From positions 1 through 39,894 of the forward strand of contig JBJEWG010000206.1 of the NCBI GenBank assembly GCA_051884935.1: a stretch of DNA of 39,894 nucleotides. Direction: 5' to 3'. The notes under the pieces are model-generated. The model made no database searches and was not told the DNA's origin. It was given only the letters and a program-made list of their open reading frames with translations. The translations under genes and the position numbers were made by a program. How positions within the stretch are numbered: position 1 is the first letter of the stretch; every line of letters starts with the position of its first letter. This document shows positions 9,230 through 35,764 of this stretch, piece by piece. The stretch comes from Kiritimatiellia bacterium (GTDB lineage Bacteria > Verrucomicrobiota > Kiritimatiellia > RFP12 > UBA1067).

Positions 9230-9473
9230 TAAATCCGCGAGGGCATGGCCGGGATATCGCTTTGGCGGTTATATGTATATATAAGGTCACGCGCGCGCGC
9301 GCGAAGCCCCGCCCCGTGGCGGAGGCTGAGGGGAGGAGCAGAGGAGGGGTCGGGGGAGGGGCGGCGACAGAAAACTTTCCCTCGGGCGACCCTCGGGCGG
9401 TGGGTCGGCGAGAGAACTTTTTTTCAGTTGGATTCTAATAAATTAAACGAACCTAAACTGAAAGGAAAGCAAC

Positions 9474-9887
9474 ATGAAGAACCAATCCCTCGCAACGCGC
9501 CTTGACTTCTATGCCAAGGTCTACGACCTCCGCCAATCCTACGCCAAAAAGCGCGCCCCATTCTGGGCCAACGCCGTCCGTCTAGATGACTGCCTCGAAA
9601 CCGAAGACGGCAGCATTACCGAAAACGCACTTTTGAGCGACAATGGAATTTGCGCGCAGAAGATTCGCACCATGGGCGAAATGGAACCGTGGCAAGTCGA
9701 ATTTGGCCGCGTGATGGCCACTTTAACCCCGACTGAACGCCGCGTCGTTGAAGCGCTCGATCAGGATACGCGCCCGACGGCGGTTGCGCGAATCACGGGC
9801 ATAAACCGCCGACAGGTCTATCGCGTACTGAATTCTTTGCGTAAACTTTTGAAAAATTGTCACACTTTACGCAATTTCTGCGAATGA
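9474..9887 (+). CDS. Small HTH protein resembling sigma-70 region 4 / LuxR-type HTH
   Basis: 137 aa. The C-terminal LTPTERRVVEALDQDTRPTAVARITGINRRQVYRVLNSLRKLL resembles ECF-sigma region 4. AAAGGAAAG SD upstream. Visibly lower GC than the surroundings. Confidence 0.55.
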   Translation: MKNQSLATRLDFYAKVYDLRQSYAKKRAPFWANAVRLDDCLETEDGSITENALLSDNGICAQKIRTMGEMEPWQVEFGRVMATLTPTERRVVEALDQDTRPTAVARITGINRRQVYRVLNSLRKLLKNCHTLRNFCE

Positions 9888-9899
9888 TATATGGGTCGA

Positions 9900-9933
9900 G
9901 GGAGATGCTGGCACCGAGTGGTGCCAGTCTCCC
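9900..9933 (+). promoter_or_regulatory. Strong intercistronic stem-loop between the HTH gene and the HU-like gene
   Basis: GGGAGA-tg-CTGGCAC-CGAGTG-GTGCCAG-TCTCCC gives 13 paired positions and no U-tail. It lies 13 nt after the stop of the upstream gene and 30 nt before ATG 9963. Confidence 0.5.
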
Positions 9934-9962
9934 GAGGCGAATATAAACAAGGAGGCCAAGAT

Positions 9963-10688
9963 ATGGCATCAGAAATAAATCAACTCAGGTACCGCGTGTA
10001 CCCATCCCGAAATCCCGTGACCGGCGGCGCGATTCTGCGCCCGGTAGTCACCCAACGGACCACGATGAACCTACGGCAACTCGTAGCATATGCGAAGACC
10101 GCCGGATTCGTCCGCGGCCAGCAGAGGGACCTCGAAGGTCTCCTCGGCGGCTTCATCGAGGCGATGCAGGACCGCGCGAAAGCCGGTTGCTCGATCAACA
10201 TCAACGGCTGGTTCGTCATCTCGGGCCAGCTCAAAGGCACAGTCGGCGAGGATCGTAAACTCACGTCCGCGAACGACTACCACGTCACGATCTCGGCCTC
10301 CAAGGACCTGAAGGTCGATATTTCGAACTTCAGCTGGTCGCGCGTGGATGACGATGTGCCGATCGCAAAGATCGAGCGACTCTGTTCGACGAATGGCACT
10401 CAGGGCGAAATCATTCGGATGCAGGAGTTCGTCGCAATCGGACGAAACTTCTCGTTCAATACCACGTGGGGTGACCGAATCATCGTGAGCTGGACGGAGG
10501 ACGAGAACGAGAAGTCGGCTGATCTGACGCCGAGTTCAAAGGGCTTGACCTATCTGCACTTCGACTGGCCGGAGGCGCTTGAGAGCGTCCCGACCGGGAC
10601 CGAGCTCACGTTCACCTTCCGTCTGCACGTCGAGGAGGGCGCGCCCGAACAGGTCTGCACGAAGACCGCGAAGCTGGTGGCGAAGTAG
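9963..10688 (+). CDS. HU-like (Bacteroidota HU-HIG type) DNA-binding domain protein with C-terminal beta-rich extension
   Basis: ATG 9963 is preceded by AAGGAGG at 7-nt spacing. The N-terminal YRVYPSRNPVTGGAILRPVVTQRTTMNLRQLVAYAKTAGFVRGQQRDLEGLLGGFIEAMQDRAKAGCSININGWFVISGQLKG resembles the HU-HIG family from memory. The C-terminal half resembles the Ig-like domain often fused to it (DUF4469-like). Not verified by search. Confidence 0.6.
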   Translation: MASEINQLRYRVYPSRNPVTGGAILRPVVTQRTTMNLRQLVAYAKTAGFVRGQQRDLEGLLGGFIEAMQDRAKAGCSININGWFVISGQLKGTVGEDRKLTSANDYHVTISASKDLKVDISNFSWSRVDDDVPIAKIERLCSTNGTQGEIIRMQEFVAIGRNFSFNTTWGDRIIVSWTEDENEKSADLTPSSKGLTYLHFDWPEALESVPTGTELTFTFRLHVEEGAPEQVCTKTAKLVAK

Positions 10689-10718
10689 TAGCCGGGCGGC
10701 GCGTAATCCGCGCCTCGC

Positions 10719-10760
10719 GGGGGCGGGTGGCCGCTGGGCCGCCCGCCCCCGTTTTCATTT
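10719..10760 (+). terminator. Rho-independent terminator
   Basis: 14-bp stem GGGGGCGGGTGGCC / GGCCGCCCGCCCCC with one U-G pair and loop GCTG, followed by GTTTTCATTT. Confidence 0.6.
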
Positions 10761-11171
10761 AACTCCGAGCGTTTGCAAATGGCTCCGCTAACGCTCCGCC
10801 TTGGGCTTCACGCTTCTTCAACGATTTCCTTTTACGAGCAAAGGAGAGAGAAGAGAATAGAAGATATAGAGAGGAGATGCTCATAACGGCGTCTCAGCCT
10901 TGCGCACGACCATAAGTGTGGCAACCAGCGTGGCTGAAGCCACGCGCCCCGATACCGCGCCTTACGCGCGCGCCATCTGAAACCAAAAACGCACAACAGA
11001 AAGGCCTGCCCTTCGCGTGTGACTTTAGTATAGACAGCGAGGCAGTGCTCTTTTAACGGTTGGGCCGTGCATTCCTTCTATGGAAGAAGATGTTTAGATG
11101 GAACGAGCCGTTGAAGAAGCGCGAAGCCTGAGGCGGAGCGTTAGCGGAGCCATTTGCAAACGTTCGGAGTT
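10761..11171. repeat. Inverted-repeat-bounded non-coding element, copy 1 (411 bp)
   Basis: Arms 10761-10823 and 11109-11171 are reverse complements with 59 of 63 positions matching. There is no credible ORF inside. A related element lies at 20609-21130. Confidence 0.7.
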
Positions 11172-11200: not shown

Positions 11201-11230
11201 TTGGCAGGGAGGGGTGGGATGTGGTATACT
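11201..11230 (+). promoter_or_regulatory. metK promoter (TTGGCA-N18-TATACT with TG extension)
   Basis: -35-like TTGGCA at 11201-11206. TGTGGTATACT at 11220-11230, the same extended -10 motif seen upstream of other genes in the window. Confidence 0.5.
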
Positions 11231-11236
11231 GGAGTG

Positions 11237-11355
11237 CATCGAAGCATCAGGAAGCGGGCGCACAGTGCGGCCGTGCCAACCGAGCGGAAACCGCCACGGT
11301 GGATAGGGGATCAGCCCCGGATGCGCTTCGCAAGTACGAAGAAAGAGAGAAGAAC
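11237..11355 (+). promoter_or_regulatory. Structured 5' leader of metK; candidate SAM-responsive riboswitch (class unassigned)
   Basis: Closing helix CGAAGCAUC (11240-11248) / GAUGC-GC-UUCG (11320-11330). Internal hairpins include GCGG-AAA-CCGC and GGGG-AUCAG-CCCC. GUGCCAA and GCGGAAAC recall the 3' half of SAM-I, but the canonical SAM-I 5' half is not seen. Confidence 0.3.
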
Positions 11356-12537
11356 ATGGCCAAACATGCCGAACGGCACGTTTTCACCTCCGAGTCGGTC
11401 TCGGAGGGGCATCCCGACAAGGTCGCGGACCAGATATCCGACGCAATCCTCGACGCCTGCATGAAGGGCGATCCGAACGCCCATGTGGGGTGTGAGACGA
11501 TGGTGGGGCCGAACCTCGTGGTGAACATGGGCGAGATCACCGCCCGGGGCTACGAGAAGATCAATCCGCAGGAGATCGCGCGGGCGGTGGTGAAGGAGAT
11601 CGGCTACGACCGTCCCGAGGAGGGCTTCAGCTGGAACACGTTCAACTACGTGAGCGCGCTGCACGGGCAGAGCCCCGACATCGCGCAGGGGGTGAACCGC
11701 GCGAAGGCCGAGAAGCAGGGGGCGGGCGACCAGGGGATGATGTTCGGGTACGCGACGAACGAGACGAAGTCCCTGATGCCGGCGCCGATCGTCTACTCGC
11801 ACGAGCTGCTGCGCGTCTTCACGAAGCTGCGCAAGTCGGGGGAGGCGGGGTATCTGCGGCCGGACTCGAAGTGCCAGCTCTCGGTGGCCTACGAGGATGG
11901 GCGGCCGGTGTCGATCGAGACGGTGGTGCTGTCGCACCAGACGACCGAGGAGGGGGCCCGGCGGGCGTGCTACGCGCAGATGGAGGAGATCGCGCGCGAC
12001 TTCCTCGCGGGCACGGGGCTGATCACGGCGCGGACGAAGTTCTACGTCAACCCCACGGGCAAGTTCGTGGTGGGGGGGCCGACGGGCGACAGCGGCCTCA
12101 CGGGACGCAAGATCATCGTGGACACCTACGGCGGCATGGCGGCGCACGGCGGCGGCGCGTTCAGCGGCAAGGACCCGTCGAAGGTGGACCGCAGCGCGGC
12201 CTACTACGCACGCTACGCGGCGAAGAACATCGTCGCGGCGGGGTTCGCCGACCGCTGCCAGATACAGGTGGCGTACGCGATCGGCGTGGACCGGCCGGTC
12301 TCCGTGTGCGTGAAGACGTTCGGCACGAACCACGGCGTGACGAACGAGCAGCTTGAGCGGGTGATCCTCGCGGGCAAGGTGTTCGACTTCCGCCCCTACG
12401 CGCTCATCAAGGACCTTGGGCTCGCGAAGCCGAAGGGGTGGAGCTACCGCGAGACGGCCAACTACGGGCACTTCGGCCGCGCCGGGTTCCCGTGGGAGAA
12501 GACCGACCGGGTGGCCGCGCTCAAAGCCGCGCTGTAA
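11356..12537 (+). CDS. metK: S-adenosylmethionine synthetase
   Basis: 393 aa from ATG 11356 ([34 protein letters not shown]). Diagnostic MetK motifs are present: [59 protein letters not shown]. The track ORF start at 11098 lies inside the repeat element and is rejected. Confidence 0.95.
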
Positions 12538-17891: not shown

Positions 17892-18212
17892 ATGATCGGG
17901 CTTGTCGTCTCGGCCGCCGCCGGCATTCTCTCGCTGTTCCAGGACTTTGAGATCAGGCCCCGCACGGGCGAGTACTACCTTTCGACGCGGGTGCCCTACA
18001 CGGAGTCGTATGGCATGAGGTTCTACGACCTCGGCGCGGTGTGGGCCCACACGCTCGTTGCGCCGGTGGTGCTCTGTCCGCTCGGGTTGACGCTTGCCGC
18101 CGTTGACACTTACGCGCTCTCGCCGGTGTGGGATACGCTCTGCCTGCCCTACGACGCGATCAAGGCGTTCGAGCGCGATGCGGACGACGAGCCGCCCGCC
18201 GCCGTTCCCTGA
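17892..18212 (+). CDS. Small hydrophobic protein, YceK/YidQ (DUF1375)-like
   Basis: 106 aa. The C-terminal LGLTLAAVDTYALSPVWDTLCLPYD resembles the DUF1375 signature. It is tightly packed between operon genes. Confidence 0.4.
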   Translation: MIGLVVSAAAGILSLFQDFEIRPRTGEYYLSTRVPYTESYGMRFYDLGAVWAHTLVAPVVLCPLGLTLAAVDTYALSPVWDTLCLPYDAIKAFERDADDEPPAAVP

Positions 18213-18223
18213 GGCCCCTCGCC

Positions 18224-20413
18224 ATGCGCATTCCCATGTTCGGCCTCGCCGTCGCCCTCCTCTGCACGTTCGCGGCCGCCGCCGTGCCGCCCTATTCCTG
18301 CACGAGCTTCGTGCCGGGCGTGACGGGCGAGAGGACCGGGTTCATCCACATGGAGGAGAAGGACGGGCGCTGGTGGGCCATCGACCCGCTGGGGCGCGGC
18401 TTCTTCCTCGCGGGCATCCAGAGCGCGAACTACTCCGGCGTGCGGGACTTCCTCACGCAGCGCCTCTTCTACGCCGAGAACAACCGCAGGCGCTACGGAA
18501 CGCGCGCCGCCTGGGAGCGGGACTGCATCGACAAACTGACCGGCTGGGGCTTCAACATGCTCGGGCATGGCTGCGAGCGGGCCCTCGAACACCGCGGGCT
18601 CGTCCACGCCCGCCAGCTCGCCATGACGCAGCGCCTCTGCCAGAATCCGAAGGAGCCGGACCTCGCGATCTGCCTGGAGACGACGCCCGCCTGCTCGGCG
18701 TTCCCGAACGTCTTCCACCCCAACTTCGAGGCGCACTGCCGCGCGTTCGCCCAGACTCACTGCGCCCCCTCGAAGGACGACCCCTGGGTGGCGGGCTGGT
18801 TCATCGACAACGAGCTCGCCTGGTGGGGCGACCGCGAGGCGCGCTACCAGCCGCGCTGCAACGGGCTCTACGAGACGGTGGCGCGTCTGCCCGAGACGCA
18901 CAGCGCGCGCGTGGCCCTGAATGCGTTCCTCGCGGCGCGCGGCGTCAAGCCGGGTGGGACGGTGCCCGACGCACTCAAGCGCGCGTTCCTGCTCCATGTG
19001 GCCGAACGCTACTTCTCCGTCACCGCGCGGGCGATCCGGGCCGCCGACCCGAACCACATGCTGCTCGGGGCGCGCTTCGCCGGCATCTGGGGCGCGGTCG
19101 ATCCGGAGGTGTTCGCCATCGCCGCGCGCCACTCGGACGTGATCACGTTCAACTGCTACCCGTGGGTGGACCTCGACACGAACGAGGTGTTCGTCCGGCA
19201 GGGCGGCGAGCGCGTGGAGGCGGCGTTCGGCGCGGTCTACCAGATCGCGAGGAAGCCGATCCTGATCACCGAGTGGAGCTTCCCCGCCCTCGACGCGGGG
19301 CTGCCGTGCGCGGGGGGCGCGGGGCAGCGCTTCGCCACGCAGGCCCTGCGCGCGCAGGCGAGCGAGGTCTGGATGCGGACCCTGCTGGTGCTGCCCTACG
19401 TCGCCGGCTGGAACTACTTCCGCTGGGTCGATCAGCCCGCGAGCGGCATCGCGCGCCACAACCGCGAGGACACGAACTACGGCCTCGTGAACGAGCGGAA
19501 CGAGCCCTACCAGCCCCTCGTCGATGTCTTCACGCGCCTCCAGAGGAACGTCGCGGCGTATCGGAGCCAGCCGCCGCCGCAGAGGAAGGCGGCCCCGGCG
19601 GCGGAGGACCCCCGGCACGCCCTCGACGCGATCGCGCCCGCCGAGCGGGTGACGTTCAGGCAGGCGGGCGATGCGTTCACGGTGGACGCGGGCGGCGGGT
19701 TCGTCTGCCGCGGGCGGAAGGGGGCGGAACGGATGCTGGAGGCCCTGACCCTCGGGACGCGGCGGATCGGGTCCTACGGCGGGATGATGAGCTATCACCG
19801 CGACGGCGGGCGGAAGGTCTGGCTTGAGGCCCGACGTCTCACGGACGTCGCCTGGCGCGACCTCCCGAACGGGCGCGGCGAGCTCACCGTGCGCGCCGAG
19901 GCGGCGGACGAGCGAGTTTCCTTCGCGCTCACGCACCGCCTCACGTTCGTGCCGGGCGCGACGAAGTTCCTCTGCGAATGCGTCCGGGTGGAGAATCTGG
20001 GGGAGGAGCCGATCGAGATCGACCGAATCTACTTCCGGCTGTATCCGGCCTTCGCCGTCTCCCGGCAGGAGGGCGCCGTGGCCGCGCCGCCCGTCTGGAA
20101 GATGCAGCGTCAGGCCGCATGGACGAGCCCGAAGGGAATGATGCTCGGCGCATCGACCACGGCCGGAAACGTCGGCGTGTTCAGGTTCTACACGGACGCG
20201 AAGGAGGCGCCGCATCCGGATATGGGTTTCTTCCCGGGAGCGAATCGCACGCTGGCCGGGCGGACGGGTTTCACGCCGGAGACGCCGATGTGGATTCTCG
20301 CGACGGTTGCCGCCGTGGGGGATGGCCCGCTTCCGCCCGAACCGATGTTCACGCCCGAGCAGGTGAAGGCGATCGCCGACGGGTGGGAGGCGAAGAAGAG
20401 AGCGTCGAATTGA
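18224..20413 (+). CDS. Secreted glycoside hydrolase, clan GH-A (TIM-barrel)-like, family unassigned
   Basis: ATG 18224 gives a signal peptide (MRIPMFGLAVALLCTFAAAA). FIDNELAWWG is acid/base-like and ILITEWSFPALD is nucleophile-like, in the spacing typical of clan GH-A. The C-terminal half is unassigned. Confidence 0.7.
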   Translation: MRIPMFGLAVALLCTFAAAAVPPYSCTSFVPGVTGERTGFIHMEEKDGRWWAIDPLGRGFFLAGIQSANYSGVRDFLTQRLFYAENNRRRYGTRAAWERDCIDKLTGWGFNMLGHGCERALEHRGLVHARQLAMTQRLCQNPKEPDLAICLETTPACSAFPNVFHPNFEAHCRAFAQTHCAPSKDDPWVAGWFIDNELAWWGDREARYQPRCNGLYETVARLPETHSARVALNAFLAARGVKPGGTVPDALKRAFLLHVAERYFSVTARAIRAADPNHMLLGARFAGIWGAVDPEVFAIAARHSDVITFNCYPWVDLDTNEVFVRQGGERVEAAFGAVYQIARKPILITEWSFPALDAGLPCAGGAGQRFATQALRAQASEVWMRTLLVLPYVAGWNYFRWVDQPASGIARHNREDTNYGLVNERNEPYQPLVDVFTRLQRNVAAYRSQPPPQRKAAPAAEDPRHALDAIAPAERVTFRQAGDAFTVDAGGGFVCRGRKGAERMLEALTLGTRRIGSYGGMMSYHRDGGRKVWLEARRLTDVAWRDLPNGRGELTVRAEAADERVSFALTHRLTFVPGATKFLCECVRVENLGEEPIEIDRIYFRLYPAFAVSRQEGAVAAPPVWKMQRQAAWTSPKGMMLGASTTAGNVGVFRFYTDAKEAPHPDMGFFPGANRTLAGRTGFTPETPMWILATVAAVGDGPLPPEPMFTPEQVKAIADGWEAKKRASN

Positions 20414-20454
20414 CGCACATGGCCCGTGGAGTGTGTCATTCTGACACACCGACT

Positions 20455-20593
20455 CCGAGTTGTGCCGATGAGCGACCCCGAGTTATGCCGATGACCGACC
20501 CCGAGTTATGCCGATGAGCCGACCCGAGTTATGCCGATGAGCGACCCCGAGTTATGCCGATGACCAACCCCGAGTTATGCCGATGACTCGACC
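20455..20593. repeat. Six tandem copies of a 23-bp repeat (CCGAGTTATGCCGATGAsCGAcC)
   Basis: CCGAGTT recurs at 20455, 20478, 20501, 20524, 20547 and 20570, an exact 23-bp period. The units are contiguous with no unique spacers. Confidence 0.9.
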
Positions 20594-20608
20594 TCGACCG
20601 ATTTGAAG

Positions 20609-21130
20609 ACTCCGAGCGTTTGCAAAGGGCGGTTCTAACGAACCGCCTGAGGCTTCGCAACGCCACAACGACATTTATTTGACAAAACAATGGCCAAATC
20701 CACTCCTTATAATGGAGAATCGGCCTAATTCCTTATAATAAGAGGCAAACACATTCCTTATAGTAGGAGGCTGGCCCGTTCCTCATAATAGGGGGCTGGC
20801 TCGCTCCTTATAATAGAGGATTGGCTCATTCTTTCTAATAAAGGCTGCCTATACCTTATATATGCCAGCGAATACCCAGCGGCATAGTAGGGAATTGGCC
20901 TTTCCTTATATATATAGGCAGATGGCCAATAGCGGCGGACTTTCGTCCGCCGGACAGAACAACACATAAAACCCGTTTCACGCCCCGGCGTCGAAGACGC
21001 CGACCAAAGGCTTAACCCGATTCAGCCAGTCAACCCAAGACCAAACCCCATTTAAGTCCAATAAAAGTCGTTGAGGAGGCGCAAAGCATCAGGCGGTTCG
21101 TTAGAACCGCCCTTTGCAAACGCTCGGAGT
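20609..21130. repeat. Inverted-repeat-bounded non-coding element, copy 2 (522 bp)
   Basis: Arms 20609-20672 and 21067-21130 are reverse complements with 58 of 64 positions matching, and the outer 42 nt are perfect. The arms share ordered sequence blocks with copy 1. The interior is AT-rich and non-coding. Confidence 0.7.
20692..20930. repeat. About 9 phased 25-bp units (GGCY-N4-6-TCCTTATAATAGGAGG-like) inside element copy 2
   Basis: CCTTATA-like cores occur at 20705, 20731, 20756, 20781, 20806, 20831, 20854, a degenerate one near 20880, and 20904. Spacing is 23-26 bp. Confidence 0.75.
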
Positions 21131-21156
21131 TTTCATTCTCCCGGAAGCCGGCCGCC

Positions 21157-22509
21157 TCAGGTCCGCTTCTTGTAGGCATCCGCGCGCAGGTTCCAGAGCA
21201 GCAGGAAGAGCACGCCCCCCGCAAGCGCCACGCCCGTGACCACGAGCACCGGCATCTGCCATCCGCCGCCCCGCTGCGCGAGATCGCCGCAAACCTTGCC
21301 GCTCACCGATACGCCGATATACGAGAACAGCGAGATGAACCCGATCGACGTGCCCGCATACGCCTTCGTGGACGTATTGGTGGCCGTCACGCCCGTGAGC
21401 GCCTGCGGTCCGTACAGGCAGAACCCCGCCGCGCAGAGCGCCGCCGCCCCCAGAAAGCCCGTGCCGCCGCCGGAGGGCAGAAACCAGAACGCCGCGATCA
21501 GCCCGCCCGTCAGCGCCATCAGAAACACGCAGAGCCGCGGCGCGCGTCCCCCGAAGAGCCGGTCCGTCGCCCATCCCGCGAACAGCATTCCCGCGATGCC
21601 CGCGAACTCGAACCACATGATCACCGACCCCGCCTCGCTCGACGTGAGCCCCTTCGCCTCCTGCAGCAGCGTCGGCCCCCAGTCCGCCACGAGGGCCCTC
21701 ACCGCGTTGATTGCGAAGTTGCACAGCCCCAGCATCCAGATGGCCGGGTTCAGGAACACCGCCCGCGCCCGCGTCCGGTGCGTCCCCGTCGCGGGCGCGT
21801 CGTCCGCGCGCGGGGACGCCTCCTCCGTTCCCGGCAGATCGGGCAGACCCTCCTCCTTCGGCAGGCCCGGCAGGAAGAGCCACATCAGCGCCAACCCCAG
21901 CGCGCCGAGCGCGGCCATCGACCAGAAGCACCACCGCCACATCCCCACGCCCTGGTTCGCCACCCCCACCACGCCAAGCCCCATGATCACGCCGCACACC
22001 TTCGCGACGAGGCCGCCGCCGATCGAGTGGGACGTGTTCCACACGCCCATCTTCGTGGCCAGCTCCTTCGGCGGCACCCAGTGGGCGATCAGCTTCGCAC
22101 ACGGCGGGAAACCCGTCCCCTGGAAGAACTGGTTCAGCACCAGCAGGCCGCCGAACGTCCACGCGAGCGTCGTCGCGTCGCCCCCCGCGAAGCGCGGCGC
22201 GAAGCCGAAGGCCACGTTCACGAGCGTGCAGGCCGCGAGGCCGAGGCAGAGCATCTTCTTCGGGCTGCACGCATCGCCGATCACGCCGTTCAGGAACTTC
22301 GAGAGCCCGTAGACGATCCCGCCCCAGAAGAGGAAGTTCCCCAGCATCGACTTCGAGATGCCGCAGTCCTGCTGCAGGCCCGGCATCGCGAAGGAGAAGT
22401 TCTTCCGCATGAAGTAGAAGAGCGTGTAGCCCACCATCGTGGCGATCAGCATCCGCCACTGCATCCGCCCGAACGTCCGGTTCGTCCGCTCGTCGTCGAA
22501 GAGCCGCAT
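21157..22509 (-). CDS. MFS transporter, organophosphate:Pi antiporter (GlpT/UhpC) family
   Basis: 450 aa. The N-terminus (WRMLIATMVGYTLFYFMRKNFSFAMP) and overall 12-TM layout are typical of the OPA family. Confidence 0.85.
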   Translation of the reverse strand: MRLFDDERTNRTFGRMQWRMLIATMVGYTLFYFMRKNFSFAMPGLQQDCGISKSMLGNFLFWGGIVYGLSKFLNGVIGDACSPKKMLCLGLAACTLVNVAFGFAPRFAGGDATTLAWTFGGLLVLNQFFQGTGFPPCAKLIAHWVPPKELATKMGVWNTSHSIGGGLVAKVCGVIMGLGVVGVANQGVGMWRWCFWSMAALGALGLALMWLFLPGLPKEEGLPDLPGTEEASPRADDAPATGTHRTRARAVFLNPAIWMLGLCNFAINAVRALVADWGPTLLQEAKGLTSSEAGSVIMWFEFAGIAGMLFAGWATDRLFGGRAPRLCVFLMALTGGLIAAFWFLPSGGGTGFLGAAALCAAGFCLYGPQALTGVTATNTSTKAYAGTSIGFISLFSYIGVSVSGKVCGDLAQRGGGWQMPVLVVTGVALAGGVLFLLLWNLRADAYKKRT

Positions 22510-35334: not shown

Positions 35335-35654
35335 AAGGGATTCCGCACCACAACACTCCAAACGCCCTCGGCGAACGAGGGAAAGTTGTACAATCAAGCG
35401 GGTCAATTCGGAAAGGCAAGGAGTCGGGATGGAGAGCGGAGGCGAAACGGAAGAAGGACAGGAACCGCAAGAGGCGGGAGAAGAGGAAAAGGAACGCCCT
35501 CTGGGGGGTGGCGCGAACAGGGGGGCGGGGATGACCGTCACCTACCGAATGGCCCGTCTCGTCGTCGAGGAGCGGCTCTCGCCCCACGATGCCATATGCT
35601 ACATGAGGAAGGACTGCCGGGACGGCGCAATCTCCCTTGTGATTTCGACTTCAC

Positions 35655-35764
35655 TTGCGCAAGTGATTGAATTCTCTTGCGCAAGCAACGGAATTCTCTT
35701 GCGCAAGCGGGGAAATTCAGTTGCGCAACCAAATCCATTCTCTTGCGCAAGAGAATCCCAGATC
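35655..35764. repeat. Five exactly phased 22-bp units with palindromic core TTGCGCAA; the last unit is a perfect 20-bp palindrome
   Basis: TTGCGCAA occurs at 35655, 35677, 35699, 35721 and 35743. The unit consensus is GAATTCTC-TTGCGCAA-G. ATTCTCTTGCGCAAGAGAAT at 35737-35756 is perfectly palindromic. Confidence 0.9.

Follow-up and report, generated by a model that had tools for sequence, protein, structure and literature searches.

Bacterial MITEs, represented by the Correia element of Neisseria, ERIC of enterobacteria and Nezha of cyanobacteria, and the mobile insertion cassette MIC231 of Bacillus cereus are non-coding, intergenic elements of less than 600 bp that are AT-richer than their hosts and bounded by terminal inverted repeats (TIRs) in which the outermost bases are best conserved. 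Their arms typically measure 10-40 bp; in mobile insertion cassettes, the same ends surround unrelated cargo. Three further systems share some of these features: (i) invertons, such as the Mpi regions of Bacteroides fragilis (an inverton regulon under one master invertase) and fimS of Escherichia coli, in which inverted repeats surround a few hundred intergenic bp and one repeat consensus occurs at more than one locus; (ii) REPINs and BIMEs, RAYT-mobilized doublets of REP sequences, which recur in extragenic DNA as inverted sequences capable of hairpin formation and span about 100 nt, comprising palindromes of 20-40 nt tagged with GTAG or CGTC and separated by short spacers; and (iii) integron attC sites, imperfect inverted repeats of 57-141 nt in total that have conserved outer cores and variable inner parts, keep pairing more than sequence, and flank ORF-bearing cassettes near an integrase and attI.

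Here we describe two intergenic elements from an uncultured Kiritimatiellia bacterium, both occurring in a single 39,894-bp contig that was analyzed in its entirety (hereafter, the window). Like MITEs and mobile insertion cassettes, they are short (411 bp for copy 1 and 532 bp for copy 2), lack transposase coding capacity, are AT-richer than the host, and bear TIRs with best-conserved outermost bases around unrelated non-coding cargo; unlike them, they show no target-site duplication, are known in two copies, have no autonomous partner in the collections searched, and carry arms of 63-80 bp, longer than those of most described bacterial MITEs. They resemble invertons in having inverted repeats of one consensus, at more than one locus, around a few hundred intergenic bp, but the repeats are several times longer, no recombinase is encoded nearby, copy 2 has no downstream gene to control, and the gene downstream of copy 1 has a promoter of its own. 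Like REPINs they are repeated, extragenic and inverted; their spacers, in contrast, extend to 285-372 nt, they carry no tag, and their arms (63-80 nt) are not REP-like palindromes. The arms recall attC sites in their imperfect pairing, conserved outer sequence and variable inner parts, whereas the cargo is non-coding and no integrase is present; the strict RYYYAAC and GTTRRRY cores, read by eye, were not found, and an assignment to attC was rejected. A full-text search of the literature found no paper pairing Kiritimatiellia with inverted repeats.

The host contig

The window has an overall G+C content of 68%, with GC3 of about 0.9 in real genes. Its gene content includes a Tad/Flp pilus operon, metK with a SAM-I/IV riboswitch, NamZ, several glycoside hydrolases, a solute symporter, an MFS transporter and a tRNA-Ala. 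The MFS transporter, encoded beside copy 2, has its top non-self matches in Kiritimatiellia MAGs, at identities of 85% or less. None of the plausible genes in this 40-kb contig showed a transposase, integrase, invertase or recombinase domain; such a domain may be encoded elsewhere in the genome. A 350-aa ORF adjoining the tRNA-Ala was considered as a candidate integrase and rejected, its product having a signal peptide, an outer-membrane-type C-terminus and no recombinase domain. In another part of the window, a stretch of about 600 nt that is apparently non-coding contains a cluster of overlapping direct and inverted repeats (35641-35764) built on the palindrome CTTGCGCAAG, with a period of 22 nt and about 4.6 units, resembling an array of operator sites.

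Anatomy of the two elements

The arms of copy 1 and copy 2 are the two longest inverted repeats of the window, and no others of this strength occur there. Repeat searches delineated arms of 63 nt with 94% identity and 285 nt between them in copy 1, and arms extending to 80 nt with 89% identity and 372 nt between them in copy 2, where the repeat grows outward by TGAA(G/A). By direct count, 58 of 64 positions are identical between the left core of copy 2 and the reverse complement of its right counterpart (21067-21130), the outer 42 nt being perfect and position 43 the first mismatch. Features of the elements are located in Table 1.

Table 1. Positions of the two elements and associated repeats in the window
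Feature	Position	Strand	Remarks
Copy 1, left arm	10761-10823	+	Begins 8 nt past the upstream gene's intrinsic terminator stem (10717-10752)
Copy 1, interior	10824-11108		285 nt, 52% G+C, non-coding; unalignable with the copy 2 interior
Copy 1, right arm	11109-11171	-	30 nt separate its outer end from the -35 box of the downstream metK promoter (11201-11230)
Tandem array, 23 nt x 6.5, consensus ACCGACCCCGAGTTATGCCGATG	20448-20597	+	Follows the GH stop and abuts the copy 2 left arm
Copy 2, left arm	20604-20683	+	Core 20609-20672, starting ACTCCGAGCGTTTGCAAA
Copy 2, left-arm perfect local palindrome, GGCGGTTC-TAAC-GAACCGCC	20628-20647	+	Mirrored in the right arm at 21092-21111
Copy 2, interior	20684-21055		372 nt, 47% G+C, non-coding
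Copy 2, about 6 tandem units of about 25 nt, near-palindromic TCCTTATAATAGGAG core	20704-20847	+	Left part of the interior
Copy 2, right arm	21056-21135	-	Outer end 22 nt from the MFS stop codon (21157)

These counts for copy 2 agree with those of an initial, sequence-only reading of the window, which had further proposed that the arms of both copies share an 18-mer and a set of ordered inner blocks, and that a perfect local hairpin in copy 2 has as its counterpart in copy 1 a direct repeat that cannot form one. All of these features were recovered as described. The blocks CTAACG, CCGCCT, GGCTTC and CAACG occur in that order in the arms of both elements; the hairpin of copy 2 is the local palindrome GGCGGTTCTAACGAACCGCC, and the direct repeat of copy 1, GCTCCGC-TAAC-GCTCCGC, is present in both of its arms. 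The terminal 18-mer, ACTCCGAGCGTTTGCAAA, is confined within the window to the four arm ends, three of them identical and the fourth with one mismatch; allowing up to three mismatches, the window holds four matches, against 0.02 expected. The conserved outermost 18-19 bp, (A)ACTCCGAGCGTTTGCAAA, contain an 8-bp palindrome, TTTGCAAA. A family of two elements, whose arms have conserved blocks in a fixed order, is supported.

The interiors have G+C contents 16-21 points under that of the genome (47-52% versus 68%). When they were compared in either orientation, the best local score was 21, against 18 +/- 2.2 in shuffled sequences, in keeping with the initial impression by eye that the two cannot be aligned. 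Within the copy 2 interior, the tandem units on the left are followed by two short GC hairpins and then by an A/C-rich right part, and the plus strand of this interior folds better than shuffled sequences (z = -4.5). AT-rich stretches occur at either end of the copy 1 interior. A common polarity had been ascribed to the two copies, with the AT-rich side next to the left arm; this holds for copy 2, in which the left half is AT-richer (42% versus 52% G+C), and fails for copy 1, in which the halves are nearly equal (53% and 51%). Only short ORFs with non-genic GC3 occur in either interior, and the single ORF of at least 60 aa in copy 2 has a GC3 of 0.49, versus at least 0.86 in real genes.

Genomic setting

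Both copies are intergenic and break neither genes nor signals. Copy 1 is placed between the strong intrinsic terminator of the upstream gene and the metK promoter. The latter (11201-11230), with an extended -10, is followed by the SAM-I/IV riboswitch (11239-11357, plus strand; 42.9 bits versus a gathering score of 41.1) and by metK itself (11356-12537). Promoter and riboswitch are kept in related Kiritimatiellia contigs (L022-L024), which are without the element.

Beside copy 1 lies a pair of low-GC genes (9474-10688) with GC3 values of 0.62 and 0.76, versus about 0.9 for the genome. One product, of 137 aa, has a helix-turn-helix resembling either sigma-70 region 4 or that of a transposase; the other, of 241 aa, has no Pfam domain and belongs to a small family found only in Kiritimatiellia (63 matches), of which a single MAG may encode as many as four members and which is often located on very short contigs. 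Horizontal acquisition of the pair is probable. A link between this pair and copy 1 was considered and rejected, the examined contexts of 241-aa homologues containing neither arms nor a comparable inverted repeat. Short repeats of the CCCTCGGGCGA / GGGTCGCGCGACCC type occur upstream of the pair (9379-9399), and related repeats lie upstream of a 241-aa homologue in another genome (L027, 770-867); these may represent a shared regulatory motif.

Copy 2 lies between the convergent 3' ends of a glycoside hydrolase-like gene (GH), with its stop at 20413, and the MFS gene, which ends at 21157, both gene ends having been verified as first read. GH (18128-20413) encodes no Pfam domain; its closest homologue, P0140 (936 aa), is 71% identical. 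GH is without the C-terminal part of about 200 aa present in P0140 and in most other homologues (about 900 aa), with homology ending at 20395, and synteny is broken at copy 2 relative to relatives. The comparison with these homologues suggests a truncation or rearrangement where the repeats now sit. The 23-nt tandem array that abuts the left arm is of uncertain membership in the element. Its first unit has a 9-mer, GACTCCGAG, in common with the arm terminus; a similarity of the array to that terminus was considered and set aside, the likeness being confined to this one 9-mer, with p of about 0.01 for the first unit alone and no significance for the consensus. The 23-mer had no matches in viral contigs.

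No target-site duplication is evident at either copy, as no direct repeat longer than about 2 nt stands beside the arm ends (flanks TTTCATTT / TCTATTGG for copy 1 and CCGATT / TTCTCC for copy 2), a reading limited by the uncertainty of about 5 nt in the element ends.

Variation among the arms

An ungapped, four-way comparison of the arms over 64 columns yielded 43 invariant columns, nine in which the two copies differ concordantly, 11 with single-arm changes and one mixed. Not one of the 64 columns groups left arms against right arms, and the closest relative of each arm is the partner arm in its own element. Seven of the nine concordant columns fall in one 16-nt cluster (columns 19, 23-26 and 33-34), comprising the half-sites that are inverted in copy 2 and direct in copy 1; one or two templated events, rather than many independent compensations, may account for most of the concordant columns. 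Mismatches between partner arms differ in kind: in copy 2, four of six are transversions that break pairing, and in copy 1 all four are transitions, three of which would make G-U pairs on the plus strand.

These results bear on the earlier proposal that the two arms of each element co-varied under selection or gene conversion acting on arm pairing. The arms are concordant within elements, as that proposal holds, in nine columns; selection on pairing is unsupported. Concordant differences do not imply such selection, because the same pattern would be given by copies derived from different source elements and, equally, by arm-to-arm gene conversion free of any function. Judged from the alignment, either the arms would have changed in concert or been re-copied from one another, or the copies would descend from different source elements; in the latter alternative, the two ends of each source element would have co-evolved with one binding protein. 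The arm mismatches of copy 2, mostly pairing-breaking transversions, give no indication that an RNA stem is under selection. Conservation of the outermost 18-19 nt is of a fixed sequence, which argues against pairing alone and suggests recognition of the arm ends by a protein.

Occurrence in a second data set

Sequence from the same species was located, via cluster look-ups, in Logan run SRR10097268, which may itself be the source of the MAG. One unitig (L026) corresponds to positions 9511-10799 at 100% identity and ends 38 nt into the left arm of copy 1, at the exact point where 31-mers cease to include the single G/A difference between the two arms. Another (L021), matching positions 22603-21106 at 99.3% identity, breaks off 30 nt inside the right arm of copy 2. 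Breaks of this kind are expected from a de Bruijn graph at inverted repeats; these breaks, together with the junctions, show that the elements exist in that data set too, both copies being present in this sample of the species. The repeats are not an assembly artefact, because flank-to-arm junctions recur in these unitigs, and an artefactual or chance origin is excluded. A third copy of the arm, considered from the end point of L021, proved unnecessary, since one differing arm base in that strain would account for the break just as well.

Distribution in databases and related genomes

Two copies are known, both in the 40 kb of the window. An exact search for the terminal 18-mer across one genome per GTDB species returned 18 single matches from unrelated phyla, none extending past the 18-mer; these are taken as chance occurrences, about 35 being the number calculated by chance for a database of that size. 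No matches were obtained with the outer 22 nt of the arm and the inner blocks in JGI metagenomes, with the arm and its inner blocks in the viral collection IMG/VR, or with the copy 2 region, by blastn, in PLSDB and phage records. A profile of the four arms, searched by nhmmer against the window and all retrieved loci, recovered the four arms and the unitig ends only, and no solo arms were found in either set. Nor was an element with the same ends and encoding a partner enzyme found in GTDB species genomes, JGI metagenomes, IMG/VR, PLSDB or phage records. The sequence-only reading had suggested a search of Rfam with the arm; this led to no known family, no match over either element reaching the gathering score and noise alone appearing at E up to 10.

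Neither the element nor any comparable long inverted repeat with a short spacer was present in about 217 kb of sequence from related Kiritimatiellia. The arms are missing beside orthologous MFS genes (L019, L020 and L034-L036), whose products are 79-85% identical, and beside metK (L022-L024) from members of a 90%-identity cluster; these loci are not strict empty sites, because downstream synteny is broken.

Repeats of other kinds were seen in these relatives. REPIN-like, GTAG-tagged palindromic doublets of about 74 nt (TTGGTAGGGTCGGCTCTCCGAGCCGACCGC ... GCGGACCGCACGGAGTGCGGTCCCTACCAA) occur around a GH2 gene (L019, 7311-7385; L020, 6988-7062 and 9541-9614), and are missing from the window. In another Kiritimatiellia, a 2750-nt segment of four genes, including those of PEP-CTERM proteins, is inverted between metagenome samples at 100% identity (L037, 12622-15371, versus L039, 7886-10635). 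Its borders are formed by a perfect 33-nt inverted repeat, CTGCGCCACAGTAGGCCTCTGCGTCGAATCGGC, which continues into the starts of paralogous genes; this inversion is a gene-swapping, shufflon-like arrangement behind one fixed upstream region.

Interpretation

The anatomy of the elements, the homology of their arms, their unrelated cargos, their intergenic and non-disruptive sites, their absence from relatives and the concordant differences between their arms are the observations from which any interpretation must proceed. Our preferred reading, tentative at a probability of about 0.4, is that both loci represent a lineage-private, non-autonomous, TIR-bounded element family, similar to MITEs or mobile insertion cassettes. 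The family is apparently private to the species and new, and it probably belongs to the known class of miniature mobile elements, some of its traits being atypical. Favoring this reading are the conserved ends, the exchangeable, AT-rich, non-coding cargo, the intergenic sites, the absence from relatives and the position adjoining a rearrangement; it is weakened by the lack of a target-site duplication, the two known copies, the unusually long arms and the missing partner enzyme.

From this combination of features we infer mobility, an enzyme acting in trans, and a cause of the concerted arm change, which would operate as follows. TIRs of 63-80 bp would enclose short, AT-rich, non-coding cargo (285-372 bp) differing between copies. 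Recognition of the outermost 18-19 bp would fall to a transposase, or to some other recombinase that binds the ends, whose gene would lie elsewhere in the genome; this enzyme may also use the inner blocks CTAACG, CCGCCT, GGCTTC and CAACG, and would move whatever stands between two inverted ends into intergenic DNA. The likeness of partner arms could reflect the origin of each copy from a different source element or, alternatively, arm-to-arm gene conversion, which 42-63 bp of identity would allow. As a lead only, GTTTGCAAAG resembles GGCACTGTTGCAAA, which we take to be the IS6/IS26 end.

The main rival to mobility is inversion in place, in which either an invertase acting in trans or RecA-dependent recombination would use the arms as substrates, flipping the interiors between two orientations. 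Repeated crossing-over in the arms would homogenize them, explaining both the nine concordant columns and the absence of any left- or right-specific column; conserved repeats at several loci, around unrelated, AT-rich interiors with promoter-like sequences, would also be in character for a regulon under one master invertase. A promoter-like site on the minus strand of the copy 1 interior (11056 to 11027) would face metK if flipped, and inversion polymorphism does occur in the class, as the 2750-nt segment attests. Invertible segments fit the gene context poorly, however, since copy 2 has no switchable gene and metK keeps its own promoter. The sequence-only reading had already judged a simple promoter switch improbable for copy 2, given the convergent 3' gene ends, and copy 1 bears this out, with the conserved metK promoter and riboswitch lying outside the element. 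At neither copy does the sequence indicate an internal promoter driving an adjacent gene. Promoter-like matches are not enriched in copy 2 (1 versus 0.6 expected from shuffled sequences), and of two in the copy 1 region (versus 0.2 expected) one lies inside the element. The arms are also two to four times the length of inverton repeats as these are generally known, and no invertase gene lies within the 40 kb, although one could be encoded elsewhere.

The structural interpretation first advanced for these elements, that the arms are complementary because a long RNA stem or DNA cruciform is the functional unit, is more weakly supported than inversion. Such a unit could signal processing, stability or termination, or could bind protein as a cruciform. 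The strong stem it calls for is confirmed insofar as the whole of copy 2 folds with its arms in a near-continuous stem (-245.5 kcal/mol, z = -15.6), and the additional plus-strand folding of its interior, together with the transitions and potential G-U pairs of copy 1, would be in accord; yet any long inverted repeat necessarily folds with low energy. Pairing is broken by four of the six mismatches in copy 2, whose local hairpin is not kept in copy 1, and the outer 18-19 nt are conserved as sequence in a manner that pairing alone does not require. Neither element has a plus-strand promoter within or just upstream of it, copy 1 stands behind a strong terminator, and Rfam contains no match; with two copies, moreover, covariation is inseparable from shared descent. 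We regard a structural function as improbable.

An undescribed type of long-arm cassette, to which we likewise give little credence, would have ends of 60-80 bp kept matched by a templated process, and would capture unrelated non-coding cargo and move without target duplication. The templated process may be hairpin- or cruciform-based copying or gene conversion, and the switch of the inner 8-mers from inverted to direct, copied into both arms, would be its footprint. Its cargo may include arrays of putative protein-binding sites, such as the 25-nt palindromic units of copy 2, and the enzyme that moves it may recognize the TTTGCAAA-containing terminus.

Least probable of all is that dispersed repeats of about 65-80 nt, each an independent unit as in REP or REPIN elements, happen to be paired around ordinary intergenic DNA, for although relatives have REPIN-like GTAG palindromes of about 74 nt, two inverted copies of which flank a gene in L020, the four arms of the window form two tight inverted pairs with no solo arms, are not themselves palindromes (an inner hairpin occurring in copy 2 only), have their partners as closest relatives, which would be unexpected of independently inserted units, and enclose interiors strikingly AT-rich relative to the genome.

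Implications

With two copies and no enzyme, the family described here is a modest curiosity. Repeats of this kind do break short-read assemblies, as in the Logan unitigs, and mark points of rearrangement. If the elements are mobile, as our preferred reading holds, no family of repeat elements would have been described before them in Kiritimatiellia, a gut and rumen lineage that has received little study, and they would provide a clean case for the co-evolution of TIRs, in which the two ends of an element changed together while its cargo was swapped.
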